A stretch of DNA of 63,412 nt, counting the filler, from Collodictyon triciliatum (lineage: Eukaryota), in the NCBI GenBank assembly GCA_043381765.1. It is 24 parts of 24 records of this genome, joined end to end, with 100 filler letters (N's around TTAATTAATTAA, not from the genome) between each part and the next. Parts side by side here need not be neighbours in the genome. Positions count along the whole stretch, not along the records: positions 15,931 to 18,482 come from JBHJMP010008683.1; 23 more parts are not named here. One strand, given 5' to 3'. Both the position numbers and the translations under genes were made by a program. The notes below the pieces were generated by a model, which ran no database searches, was not told where the DNA came from, and worked only from the letters and a program-made list of their open reading frames with translations. This document shows positions 15,831 to 31,721 of this stretch, piece by piece (within the stretch, counting starts at the first letter, position 1; each line of letters begins with the position of its first letter).

Positions 15831-16037
15831 NNNNNNNNNNNNNNNNNNNNNNNNNNNNNNNNNNNNNNNNNNNNTTAATTAATTAANNNNNNNNNNNNNN
15901 NNNNNNNNNNNNNNNNNNNNNNNNNNNNNNTCGATCAAACAACAGCCAATTGCGTGAAACCGTTTATCCCTATGTGGAAATTATATTTATTTCTCTGCCG
16001 AGTGTGCCAATTGCCGACGTGGTTGTCATCCAGCCGG

Positions 16038-16604
16038 CTAAACCCTCAACCGAATCACCTCCAAATCCTGCTTGATGGCCAGGGCGTAGAACTCGTCATC
16101 TTTCAGCGGCTGTGCATTCTGCCCACGATTAGCCGTTAGTGCAAGCCACACCTGGATGTCCTCGAGCGTGACCCGCTTGGGGAAGGCGTGAGTCGGGGCG
16201 TAGACAAAGTAGCAGGCGTCTTCGTTTGTGGCAAAGCGACCGGGCAGCTTGAACGAGACGGATTCGTGCGGCTCGAGCGGCTGGATGCGGCGATAGCGAT
16301 TGTAGAAGATATCTGCGGATTGGGGGGTTTTGCCAGAAAGCTGATCGGGCTGATCAGCTCGCGGCCCACACATGACGTTTCCGTGATAAGACTTGCGCGT
16401 AGAGTTGACCACTTGGATGGACGGCATATATCCGAGCCACGCAGACACGTAGTACATGGCTATGGTGAAGAGCACAAGGCCTGCAAGGAAGATCAGCGGG
16501 CCGTATCTGCTTGTTCTCTGCTCGAAGGCTTCCACCGGGTCAGGCTCGGCTGCGTCCACAACAAGTCCCTCGCGCGGGTTGCGGCGCTGATGTAGTTGAT
16601 TCAT
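16038..16604 (-). CDS. Single-pass membrane protein of unknown function (intronless; likely start MNQLHQ)
   Basis: GC-rich ORF with TM segment PLIFLAGLVLFTIAMYYVSAWLGY. Confidence 0.6.
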   Translation of the reverse strand: MNQLHQRRNPREGLVVDAAEPDPVEAFEQRTSRYGPLIFLAGLVLFTIAMYYVSAWLGYMPSIQVVNSTRKSYHGNVMCGPRADQPDQLSGKTPQSADIFYNRYRRIQPLEPHESVSFKLPGRFATNEDACYFVYAPTHAFPKRVTLEDIQVWLALTANRGQNAQPLKDDEFYALAIKQDLEVIRLRV

Positions 16605-16815
16605 GTTTGGCGGCTTCTGTGCGTTTCTCCGCGTCTCTATCGTTTGTGTGAGTGGATAAAAGAAGCAGCTCTGGGCGATAATGACGGGGCAGATTTGTTT
16701 CGTTTGAGATTCATCTGCGAAAGTCTGGCGTGTGGTACCGTACAAGTAGTAAAGGATATAATGTGCAGATTAATACGTCACCACTTTTGATATTCAGAAG
16801 AATTGTCGTAAATGA

Positions 16816-16930
16816 AACGAGGAGTATGCCAATCGAAAGATTGGTAAACCTGGTGCGCTAGTATCCAAGGTCTCACCACTTTTTCACAAAGGCCGTGTAG
16901 AGGTGAAGGCTGCCAGGAAAGACCCGACAG
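16816..16930 (-). ncRNA. Putative Fanzor omegaRNA scaffold, copy A
   Basis: 3' segment shared with copy B; stems TTCAC/GTGAA, GGTGAGACCTTGG/CCAGGTTTACC and CCAATC/GATTGG. Confidence 0.55.
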
Positions 16931-17538
16931 CCTGTTTTTTAGAGGAAGGTGTAGGCTATTTTGAATGATTAAAAGAACTTTCTTGAGTGTATTTTTAGCG
17001 CTGTTAAAGTCCCTTGTCAAGAATACACTTTGTTTGCTTTCTGAGCGATTGCATTCTTAACATATGAGACGTCTATACATCTTTTTTGAATTTCCTCTCA
17101 GTTTCATATATTCCAGTTCTTATTCGCAGTTACAGCACATCTTGGATGTTTTAAATTCACCTACACTAACTGTTTCAAAACGTTTGGATAGTATTTTTTG
17201 TAATCCTCTTCCGATTATTGGCGTAAAATGGTTCATATGACATTTTCTGCTCCAGTATCCATACGCTAGTACAACATCCTTGCCAAATGTCTTTTCGATT
17301 CGGTTCATAAACAATTGCTCAATTCTTTTTGTATTAAAATACTGCCTCCATATCATCTTTGGAAAAGTCCCTTGTTCATAAAATATGGATAATTCTATCT
17401 GGTATCTTGATTTCATTCATACATATTTTCGAAATATTTCATAATCGACCGTGCATGAATAACGTTTACTCAGTTTTGTCTCTAAATCGATTAAAGATGC
17501 TCTTGATGTCTCAAACCGCTGATTCTCTTCAAAAGTCC

Positions 17539-17639
17539 TGAGACCAAAAGAAAAAAAAAATTTTTTTGGTTTCTTTTCAACAGTTTATTGAGAGAAAACA
17601 AAGCCGAGGAAACCGCCTTCGCAGTGAGACCAAAAGAAA
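17539..17639 (-). mobile_element. Short retroposed insertion (71 bp) with 15-bp target-site duplication
   Basis: TGAGACCAAAAGAAA occurs at 17539-53 and 17625-39. The insert has AATAAA and an A-rich tail on the minus strand and is absent from copy B. Confidence 0.75.
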
Positions 17640-18903
17640 TAGCACTTTGTAAACCTGTTGCAATCCATACCTCTGAAGCATTGTACTTTTTCTTTCTTTC
17701 TCGCGCAAGAGTATTTTGTGATTTTTAATAGATTTGCTATCGTGTCTTCTTTTGTTGTGTCGTGCAACGTACTTTCTTACCTGTCTCATCCACCATGTAA
17801 ACCAAATAAACTTGCCTGCGTCCACTCCAACTATATATTTTTTTCGCTAATAAAGATAACTGCTCTTCGGAAAGTTCATATATATATAAACACATTCTCG
17901 GTACTTTTGATTATATTTGAATTTTGAATTTGAAATACCTTTCTTTTCAAACAATAATGACAACGCCAAGCCGTCTGTTTGTATCATGTATTCAAAACTG
18001 TAGTCCCTTTGACGAAAGACCTTCTCTTCATTTCAAAGAAATTATCCCATAGGGTCTCTTTGCATCCTATTATATTCTTCATTAATGATGTTTTCCTAGA
18101 TAATACTAATATCTATCAAACATGCAGTATCTAGAGTAATATGACATTATATTGTTAGTTACTTATAGAGATTGATTGAAGCAGTTTGGCTTCAATGTCC
18201 TCAAAAAATGCGATTCATGTAAATAAGACATGGAATGTACTTATTTGGATTGACTTTGACGTCATATTCGATACCTTTCACAACATCGCTGAAAATGACA
18301 CGATGCAAATGCATTTTAGCCCATCCTTTATGTTGTTCCGGTATACCGAGTTTCTCGAAGATGGCTTTATTTTTTCCTTTATTCGATTCAAAGTGCAGCG
18401 AGGTTATGCCATACAAAGGGGCGGGATGGGAGCGCATGGGAGAGAGCAAACGCGAGTAGGAGAAGACACTACCGTGGAGAGGNNNNNNNNNNNNNNNNNN
18501 NNNNNNNNNNNNNNNNNNNNNNNNNNTTAATTAATTAANNNNNNNNNNNNNNNNNNNNNNNNNNNNNNNNNNNNNNNNNNNNAGAGTGAGAGAGTGAGAG
18601 AGTGAGAGAGTGAGAGAGTGAGAGAGTGAGAGAGTGAGAGAGTGAGAGAGTGAGAGAGTGAGAGAGTGAGAGAGTAAGAGGAAAGGTATATTTAACAAGA
18701 AATAATTTTCATTCTTTTTATAAAAAAAGAAGCATTTTCAAATGAACGTATATTATAAGACACATCATTTTTTAAAACTAGACATATAATTTATCGATTG
18801 TAAAATGTAGACATAAGTACACTTAAAGCTATTCATTAAATGAAACAAAAAAAAAAAAAAAAAAAAAAAACAGAAGGGAATGGCCATGCTAATAAAAATT
18901 TAC

Positions 18904-29356: not shown

Positions 29357-29937
29357 NNNNNNNNNNNNNNNNNNNNNNNNNNNNNNNNNNNNNNNNNNNN
29401 NNNNNNNNNNNNNNNNNNNNNNNNNNNNNNNNNNNNNNNNNNNNNNNNNNNNNNNNNNNNNNNNNNNNNNNNNNNNNNNNNNNNNNNNNNNNNNNNNNNN
29501 NNNNNNNNNNNNNNNNNNNNNNNNNNNNNNNNNNNNNNNNNNNNNNNNNNNNNNNNNNNNNNNNNNNNNNNNNNNNNNNNNNNNNNNNNNNNNNNNNNNN
29601 NNNNNNNNNNNNNNNNNNNNNNNNNNNNNNNNNNNNNNNNNNNNNNNNNNNNNNNNNNNNNNNNNNNNNNNNNNNNNNNNNNNNNNNNNNNNNNNNNNNN
29701 NNNNNNNNNNNNNNNNNNNNNNNNNNNNNNNNNNNNNNNNNNNNNNNNNNNNNNNNNNNNNNNNNNNNNNNNNNNNNNNNNNNNNNNNNNNNNNNNNNNN
29801 NNNNNNNNNNNNNNNNNNNNNNNNNNNNNNNNNNNNNNNNNNNNNNNNNNNNNNNNNTCGTGGCTTGTGTAGGAGCCGCCGACTCTATGATACCATATTT
29901 GTCCGCTTGCTTGGTTATTCCCTTTCTCACGTTTACT

Positions 29938-30050
29938 AACTAGGAATATAACATCTTTCGATTGGTAAACTTGGTGCGCTAGTATCCAAGGTCTCAACAC
30001 TTTTTTCACAAAGGTTACGTAGTGGTGAAGGCTGCCAGGAAAGACCCAAA
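29938..30050 (-). ncRNA. Putative Fanzor omegaRNA scaffold, copy B
   Basis: Homologous to 16816-16930; stems TTCAC/GTGAA, CTTGG/CCAAG and ATC-GAAA-GAT. Confidence 0.55.
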
Positions 30051-31721
30051 AGCATGATTTTCTAGAGGAAGGTGTATACTTTTTATTAAAGGATTAAAAT
30101 AACTTACTTGAGTATATTATTAGCGCTGTTAAAGTCCCTTTATCAAGAATACACTTTGTTTGCTTTCTGAGCGATTGCATTCTTTACTCATGAGACATAT
30201 ATACAACTTTTTTTTGAATTTCCTTTCAGTATCATATATTCCAGTTCTTTTTCGCAGTTACAATACATATTGAGGTTCTAAATTCATACACGCTAACTGT
30301 TTCAAAACGTTTGGATAGTATTTTTCGTAATCCTCTTCTGATTGTTGGCCTATAATTGTTCATCGGACATTTTCTGCTCCAGTCTCCTTACGTCAGTACA
30401 GCATCCTTGCCAAATGCCTTATCGATTCGGTCCATAATCAACTGTTCACTTCCTTTTTGTATTAACATACTGTCTCCATATCATCTTTCGAAAAGGCACT
30501 TGTTCTTAAAATCTGGATAATTCTATCTGGCATCTTGATTTCAGATACATATTTTCGAAATTTTTCATAATCGACCGTGCATGAATTTGTTTACTCAGTT
30601 CTGTCTCTAAATCGATTAAAGATATTCTTAATGTCTCAAACTGTTGATTCTCTTCAAAGTCCTGTGACCAAAAGAAACAGCACTTTGTAAATCTGTTGCC
30701 ATCCATATCCCTGTATCGTTGTACTTTTCTTTTTGCGCAAGAGTATTTTGTGATTTTTAAGAGATTCACTATCATGTCTTCTTTGGTATGCCATGTAGCG
30801 TAATTTCTTACCTGTCTCATCCACCATGTAAACCAAATTAAACCTGTCTGCGTCCAGTCAAACTATTTTTTTTGTCACTAATAAAGATAACTGCTCTTCG
30901 GAAAGCTTATCTGTATAAACATTTTTTTTTTGGTCTTTTGATCATATTTTGGATTTTGAATATGAAATACCTTTCTTTTCAAACAATAATGACACCGCCA
31001 AGCCGTCTGTTTGTATCATGTATTTAAAATTGCAGTCTCTTTGATGAAATACCCTCTTCTTCATTTCAAAGAAATTATCACATAGTTTCTCATTACATCC
31101 TGATATATTCTTCATTAATGATGTTTTTCTAGTTGATACTAATAGACCTATCAAACATGCAGTATCTAGAGTAATATGACACGGTATATTGTTAATTCTT
31201 ATAGAGATTGGTTGAAACAGTTTGGTTCCAATGTCCTCAAAAATGCGATTCATGTAAATCAGACATGGAATGTACTTATTTGGATTGACTTTGGCGTCAT
31301 ATTCGATACCATTTACACTATCCCTGGTCATAATATGATTCAAATGCGGTGTAGTCCATTCTTTATATTGTTCCGGTATTTCAAGTTTGTTGAAGATGGC
31401 TTATTTTTTTAACTTTCGTAGCTCTGCCTTTTTAGTAGCTTCCGTCATATTCTCATCTTTAGGAACTGTTTGATTTATAAAGCGCAGTGACCTCTATACA
31501 AAATGTTCCTTAATGTTATTATGATAAGTTGTTAACATTTGCTCCGCCAAGCGCGGTAATACATGAGACAGTCCAACCAACGGAAAGCGTTCTTCTCGGG
31601 ACAAAAGGAATCGAAAATCAATGAGATACAAAAATCATTATGTCATCTCTCATTTCTGGTTTTTTTTTTTTTAATCTTGCGTGTCTATCTTGTGAAACTA
31701 TTTCCGACTGTCTTTGAAGCG
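29938..31721 (-). mobile_element. Fanzor1-like element, copy B, decayed, running off the scaffold end
   Basis: QMLTTYHNNIKEHF, PCHITLDTACL, MIQTDGLAVSLLF, LDADRFNLVYMVD (RuvC-I Asp at 30852-54), GDWS, YEFRTS (Glu at 30283-85), RDFNSANNIL (Asp at 30134-36). Confidence 0.9.

Follow-up and report, generated by a model that had tools for sequence, protein, structure and literature searches.

The minus-strand segment at 16820-16935 of the window, the 63,412-nt stretch of Collodictyon triciliatum DNA that was analyzed, is probably the 3' terminus of a multi-copy, Fanzor1-type element and the place where the omegaRNA of an ancestral member would have been templated, with the two copies in the window (A and B) now dead relics. 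Read along the minus strand of copy A, this terminus would comprise the final ~17 nuclease codons (16935-16884) and a 64-nt non-coding right end (16883-16820), beyond which unique host DNA would begin. By analogy with Fanzor1 and TnpB systems, a transcript running through the right end of working members would be processed into an omegaRNA; its scaffold would be the conserved terminal sequence, which often overlaps the ORF end, and its guide of 14-21 nt would be whatever sits just outside the element. The same analogy makes it plausible that the right end was once an omegaRNA template in the ancestor. Since A and B are dead and drifting neutrally, their flanks would be at most fossil guides.

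The window is a chain of unplaced contigs, with parts of ~2.55 kb each that slowly decrease in size. In each linker between parts, two runs of 44 N enclose the 12-mer TTAATTAATTAA; the linkers carry a stop in every frame (the 12-mer reads L-I-N-stop); because unplaced contigs are joined in this way, ‘genes’ on either side of a linker are not genomic neighbors. GC content ranges from 25-55% per 2 kb across the window and microsatellites are frequent, in keeping with a eukaryotic source. Copy A (16820-18375, minus strand) lies on contig A (15931-18482), which provides ~900 nt of context beyond the end of the copy; its ORF part (16884..18375) is 5'-truncated. Copy B of the same element (29942-31721, minus strand; tail at 29942-30056) lies on contig B (29177-31721) and runs off it at 31721; this contig is interrupted by a gap at 29357-29857. 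The two copies have ~1.5 kb in common, both on the minus strand, including the ~115 nt past RuvC-III reported in the original prediction, which blastn and MAFFT both recover. A blastn search of the window with contig A aligned 16839-17553 to 29960-30677 at 87.4% identity and 17625-18375 to 30663-31409 at 85.4%; apart from these matches to contig B and the self-match, it returned a single 43-nt match at 61159-61201. With MAFFT, the A/B match crosses a loop that differs in four bases and runs on to ...TCCT, at 16820 in A and at 29942 in B. The likeness of the two ends is far above chance because it belongs to this 1.5-kb repeat. Copy A also carries ~70 nt (17553-17625) that are missing from B.

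Past ...TCCT the two copies diverge, with 11 of 30 aligned bases identical over 16790-16819. The locus-specific flanks that would serve as guides if an omegaRNA ran through the end lie on the minus strand at 16800..16819 for A and 29922..29941 for B, where the assembly gap starts 84 nt further on, at 29857. Of 22 public runs found, the contigs of four (X1, X2, X3 and X6) were compared with contig A, which is matched at graded identity by 361 contigs from X1 (54, 106, 121 and 80 in the identity bands 99+, 95-99, 90-95 and <90%, respectively) and by 149 from X2. Parts of contig A that have no cover in the metagenome and RNA runs are not taken as a sign of absence. The summed X1 depth, which is not to be read as copy number because it comes from contigs, some of them metagenomic, is 20.8 over the flank at 15931-16618 (one 949-nt contig), 0 over 16705-16790, 50 over 16791-16876, 141 in the next bin and 131-374 in most element bins. 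X2 contigs that are clipped at 16839 carry a GAAA loop, then ...TATACTCCT, and then a third flank, while an X3 contig aligns up to 16820 and continues into a fourth. Four copies (A, B, X2 and X3) thus have four different flanks after ...TCCT, and the divergence of A from B marks the real end of a high-copy repeat.

These results agree with earlier claims that the flanks differ past the end and that the stretch is the right end of an element, the latter being supported by depth, loose ends and the Fanzor1 ORF. Homology was also checked for continuation far past the end, and it stops there: X1 depth is 0 just outside, and the two further copies break at the same place. The end was originally put near 16816 and 29938, where similarity was said to fade; the end itself is real, but its position is 16820 / 29942, four bases away. 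The 16816 placement depends on 3 of the next 4 bases, which are common to A and B only and are absent from the two further copies. The same data bear on whether the A/B similarity reflects a segmental duplication or assembly redundancy instead of the end of a mobile element. Such an origin might be suspected in a chain of short unplaced contigs, a kind that is often redundant, but A and B differ by 12-15% and by the 70-nt indel, hundreds of X1 contigs of graded identity fall on the element, and four copies have four different flanks. These findings already contradict a duplication or redundancy, which we regard as highly improbable.

Two features near the ends of individual copies were also recorded. 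The B flank at 29928-29939 is complementary at 10 of 12 positions to the scaffold segment 29962-29973 around GTTTAC, and the flank of the X2 copy contains TAGTAA 2 nt from the end. They may be due to chance, to a target preference or to a slightly longer end in some copies. Neither a left end, a partner for a terminal inverted repeat (TIR), a target-site duplication nor a TAM is visible in the window, where a blastn-short search with the terminal 71 nt for a left-end or inverted partner matched only A, B and the hairpin itself. Since both contigs stop within the Fanzor ORF or just upstream of it, with no room for an upstream gene, the absence of TIRs and a transposase from the window is uninformative.

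The host sequence beyond the end of copy A contains an open frame of 243 codons (16038-16769, minus strand; first ATG near 16604), which is oriented like the element and lies 51 nt past it. In the runs compared it appears to be single-copy, and the X1 contig that covers it stops matching at 16641. Identical 151-nt contigs are present in the freshwater metatranscriptome X6 at 16187-16337 and 16356-16506, and a Pfam search with the frame recovered no family (best E 0.095).

On its truncated 5' side, copy A is cut off at 18375, where an unrelated repeat starts. This different and far more abundant repeat (18370..18482), which is not Fanzor, has a summed X1 depth of 1828-2581, roughly tenfold that of most element bins; each of the four runs compared has loose ends precisely at 18370, and the 43-nt match at 61159-61201, on the opposite strand, belongs to it. 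Within the element, several X1 and X3 contigs depart from the alignment at 17619-17622 into other sequence that is common to them, and joints that skip 231-243 nt are present (16931/17175 and 16940/17172). The joints and departures indicate that the family includes deletion or rearranged derivatives.

Protein comparisons identify the ORF of A and B as Fanzor1-like. A read-through translation of A (16931-17584, with X placed at three stops) matched Fanzor1 proteins of Parasitella (E 9.3e-8), Guillardia (4.9e-5) and Spizellomyces (SpuFz1, 0.0024) in a phmmer search of the PDB, these being three of the five structures listed. The Pfam family Cas12f1-like_TNB was found on the same read-through with E 0.0012 and 19.4 bits, under the curated cut-off of 26.3 bits, while single ORF fragments of A gave no relevant Pfam family. 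A search of a large protein database for an intact ORF of the exact subfamily found none; the single longer protein returned was P0002, an intact 648-aa relative that is 62% identical to the A read-through over 90% of the query. The sole matches of P0002 to solved structures at E ≤0.01 are the Guillardia (GtFz1, 2.1e-28), Parasitella (PpFz1, 2.7e-24) and Spizellomyces (SpuFz1, 8gkh, 3.7e-23) Fanzor1 proteins. Pfam returned nothing for P0002 at E ≤0.01, and a precomputed assignment to PF26935 is listed for it in the database.

Both copies in the window are pseudogenes, relics of Fanzor1 members and not functional members. In tblastn searches with P0002, copy A spans residues ~182-620 and is without the first ~181 residues, and copy B spans residues 107-620. 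Three-frame translation of A requires all three frames and meets several in-frame stops, while B has in-frame stops and more frameshifts than A. The motifs VGVDAGK, GEFKTSK and TRDFNSA are retained in A and align to the same motifs of P0002; we take the corresponding patterns (VGVD.GK,.EF.TSK and RDFNSA) to represent the RuvC acidic, catalytic residues. The putative zinc ribbon of A has one stop within the second CxxC and another after the first. A ciliate-type code, with TAA read as a residue, was considered for the stops and rejected, since frameshifts are needed as well, TGA stops are present, and B has AAA where A has TAA.

Comparison with P0002 also places the end of the ORF inside the presumed scaffold. 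In A, the match to the P0002 C-terminus (KKQAVG...) lies at 16940-16896 and is in a different frame from RuvC-III; copy B stays in one frame through the corresponding point. Half of the contig depth in X1 has one extra base at 16934, as would be expected if A alone had lost a base there. The ancestral-frame stop is a TGA at 16886-16884 in A and a TAA four codons earlier in B. The C-terminal frame of the intact relative therefore makes the first ~50 nt of the presumed scaffold (16935-16884, ~17 codons) coding, including an 11-bp hairpin, and leaves a non-coding tail of only 64 nt (16883-16820). This coding overlap is no argument against an omegaRNA, since overlap with the ORF end is described for Fanzors (PMC10432273, in a figure legend; PMC10530073).

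Several potential structures, all on the minus strand, lie along the tail. Hairpin 1 (16907..16933), an inverted repeat of 11 bp with a 5-nt loop in the RNAfold structure of A, lies inside the C-terminal coding tail; B has three changes in it, all on the 5' arm, and two of these break pairs of the 11. The TTCAC/GTGAA hairpin (16883..16907; 5 bp, 15-nt loop) was read directly from the sequence. Its arms (TTCAC at 16907-16903 and GTGAA at 16887-16883) are identical in A and B, with 5 substitutions between them, and the ancestral TGA stop lies in the 3' arm, while the TAA stop of B lies in the loop. The original prediction of a kept stem with a varying loop holds for the arms and the loop substitutions, but neither RNAfold on A nor RNAalifold on A and B picks the stem, and the loop is largely altered by private changes in A, which differs at 16893 and 16901 from all other covering contigs (4 and 8, respectively, in X1). 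The non-coding right-end tail (16820..16883) has a 5-bp stem, a terminal hairpin and the 9-nt end ...CATACTCCT. Its stem (16869-16865 with 16853-16849) comes from RNAalifold and, at 5 bp, falls short of the ‘second long stem’ that had been described. The expected terminal hairpin is present, with CCAATC/GATTGG pairing over 6 bp at 16844-16829 and a TTTC loop in A; B (29947-29965) and the further X2 copy have a GAAA loop and a weaker 3' arm. The inverted loop (TTTC vs. GAAA) and more perfect 3' arm of A may be the signature of a template-switch inversion in a quasi-palindrome.

Conservation of the tail is that of the repeat as a whole. Over 16820-16935, A and B are identical at 98 of 115 positions (85.2%; 85.7% in the non-coding part), compared with 88.1% and 86.5% in the two blocks of decayed ORF. 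The tail has thus drifted like the dead gene, and the ‘conserved’ 3' end of the original prediction reduces to plain repeat identity. Covariation was examined with RNAalifold on A and B, which gave 22 pairs, 0 of them with a compensatory change, from an alignment of only two sequences. The tail of A folds at -40.4 kcal/mol (z -2.5, with 4 of 200 shuffles as good), whereas that of B folds at -17.7 kcal/mol (z +1.6, with 194 of 200 shuffles as good). Rfam found nothing at gathering score in the window; the only three matches in contig A are at chance level (E 0.84-4.7) and lie off the tail. Neither the viral nor the metagenome contigs searched gave an exact match to a 20-nt pattern taken from the most conserved stretch of the tail. 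X6, the sole run recorded as RNA (that X1 is one too is only a guess), has no contig over 16533-17650, in assembled contigs that cannot show small RNA anyway; it does contain contigs ~90% like parts of the ORF.

With both ORFs broken, no covariation and a tail kept no better than the dead gene, the earlier claim that these loci make omegaRNAs with their flanks as guides is not supported for A and B themselves. Both loci might still be live if each produced an omegaRNA whose flank guided a Fanzor that an intact copy elsewhere in the genome provided in trans. The folding of the A tail, better than most shuffles, would fit such an arrangement, as would the X1 contigs that are at least 99% like contig A (54 of 361), which hint at recent copies, and the retention of the omegaRNA region by SpuFz1 ‘ghost’ loci without an ORF, as described in PMC10432273. 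Against this, B has lost two pairs of hairpin 1 and its tail folds no better than shuffles, A differs privately at 16893 and 16901 and has its terminal hairpin loop inverted, and the tail has no RNA cover among the X6 contigs, limited as these are for small RNA. We consider live loci very unlikely, and the reading of A and B as dead relics is retained below.

More distant relatives were also examined. With the 98-aa ORF at 17120-17416 as the query, a protein-pattern scan of metagenome contigs yielded 47 loci (L001-L047) on low-GC contigs of up to 236 kb, encoding proteins 31-43% identical over the RuvC region. We read these freshwater contigs as giant-virus-like because the wider family includes a UniRef entry with the label ‘viral metagenome’. 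Among the 28 loci, out of 47, whose ORFs were extracted, L036 and L043 have broken frames, L044 (740 aa) is divergent, and the other 25 have open frames of 597-642 codons, one of which runs off its locus. The proteins of this Fanzor family are typically ~612-615 aa. In an alignment of these 25 loci, column agreement is 0.83-0.98 through the stop codon up to one point and then drops to 0.43. A common end motif occurs 97-123 nt past the stop in 27 of the 28 loci (42 of 47 overall), the tail ends sharply at ...GGTGTAAT, and unrelated flanks follow. At the sequence level, the relatives show the layout proposed for A and B, with a conserved tail past the stop, a sharp end and unrelated flanks.

For the 24 distinct sequences of the relatives, RNAalifold predicted a hairpin over the stop codon in which one pair shows a compensatory change (C-G in 17 sequences, U-A in 7); the seven U-A sequences may form one clade, and the change would then be one event. 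A long stem was also predicted, the 3' arm of which is the terminal repeat. In L007, the same ~33 nt are found inverted 4.2 kb upstream, delimiting an element of ~4.3 kb (L007:372-4638) that also carries a transposase with DDE_3 (E 3e-17) and HTH domains, plus a 305-aa ORF belonging to no known family. The inverted terminal repeats and the DDE_3 transposase identify the L007 element as a Tc1/IS630-type transposon, and these features were seen only in this distant relative.

The L007 transposase and 305-aa ORF gave nothing in tblastn against the window (best E 1.1-2.3; transposase, 2.3). When the 47 loci were searched by blastn with both tails and with the complete elements of A and B, the sole similarity was a coding stretch of 33-51 nt near RuvC-II, and the tail matched nothing. 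A covariance model built from the 3' ends of the 24 relatives had 16 hits in the window with E 0.16-9.4, none of them on the A or B tail, and of 36 pattern matches between P0002 and viral contigs, 0 were confirmed.

The relatives bring out the strongest rival reading, in which the tail would be only a transposon terminus (a TIR, a subterminal transposase-binding sequence and a 3' UTR) that was kept for mobilization and had no guide-RNA role in this lineage. The last ~33 nt of L007 are indeed a TIR arm of a transposon with DDE_3, the tails of A and B are no better conserved than the dead ORF and hold 0 covarying stems, and many copies are deletion derivatives (the 16931/17175 and 16940/17172 joints and the loose ends at 17619-17622), which fits mobilization in trans. 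The roles of terminus and omegaRNA are compatible, however: the omegaRNA region of SpuFz1 takes in the 3' inverted repeat (IR), according to the description in PMC10432273, and each Fz1 reported as tested in PMC10432273, PMC11423790 and PMC10530073 binds RNA from the right end. The hairpin at the stop codon of the relatives, with its one compensatory change, also argues for a role in RNA. We therefore consider a terminus without any guide-RNA function unlikely, though less so than live loci, and continue to favor a right end that served as an omegaRNA template in the ancestor.

As it stands, the locus adds one more decayed, high-copy Fanzor1 family with a fixed right end, in a low-GC host whose DNA is also found in freshwater metagenomes. 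The fixed boundary would allow all copies to be collected, the structure of the omegaRNA to be tested and P0002 to be paired with its own RNA. A more speculative extension, which we put forward tentatively and hold to be doubtful, is that intact members such as the 648-aa P0002 use a short right-end omegaRNA (~65-115 nt) with its first hairpin over the stop codon, in common with the Tc1/IS630-borne Fanzors of giant-virus-like contigs at ~40% protein identity. If true, this ‘stop-codon hairpin’ would be an old, conserved module, and Fanzor1 transposons would have been exchanged between giant viruses and a freshwater eukaryote, where the element then reached hundreds of copies.

This kind of locus has been thoroughly described before (Saito 2023, Jiang 2023, Xu 2024), and nothing here departs from the known pattern. 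As in SpuFz1 (Saito et al. 2023, PMC10432273), the right end of a multi-copy element holds the nuclease ORF and is directly followed by variable sequence, and the likeness extends to the protein level, as seen in the match of P0002 to 8gkh. According to the account of SpuFz1 in PMC10432273, a 75-nt conserved region separates the stop from the 3' IR, which is included in the omegaRNA region, and the RNAs are 88-90 nt long, extending 14-15 nt into variable sequence. SpuFz1 is described there with small RNAs, terminal IRs, a CATA TAM and cleavage, whereas A and B are pseudogenes. The Fanzor1 proteins of Guillardia theta and Parasitella parasitica are the best solved matches of the ORF, and their omegaRNAs of 150 and 75 nt (Xu et al. 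2024, PMC11423790) bracket the 64-115 nt here. In the comparison of Fz1 omegaRNAs given in PMC11423790 (150, 90 and 75 nt), the first stem-loop has 7 bp and the remainder is variable; the candidate first stem-loop has 11 bp in A and is degraded in B. A 64-nt tail, or 115 nt with the coding overlap, would fit within this known range. An association of Fanzor1 with Mariner/Tc1 elements is likewise in print (PMC10530073).

In the 47 metagenome loci, as in copy A, the stop codon sits in the 3' arm of a hairpin built around a ..TCAC/GTGA.. core; in A it is the TGA of the GTGAA arm. Their conserved tails of ~100-120 nt also end sharply before locus-specific flanks, but have no nucleotide likeness to the tails of A and B, and the TIRs and DDE_3 visible in L007 are not seen for A and B, whose contigs end inside or just upstream of the ORF. 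In TnpB systems of the IS200/IS605 type (ISDra2), the omegaRNA scaffold comes from the right end, overlapping the 3' end of the ORF, and the guide comes from the flank; ISDra2 is prokaryotic, with a TnpA Y1 transposase and no TIRs. The element described here shares this right-end and flank logic with ISDra2 TnpB, but among solved structures its protein matches eukaryotic Fz1 and not TnpB.
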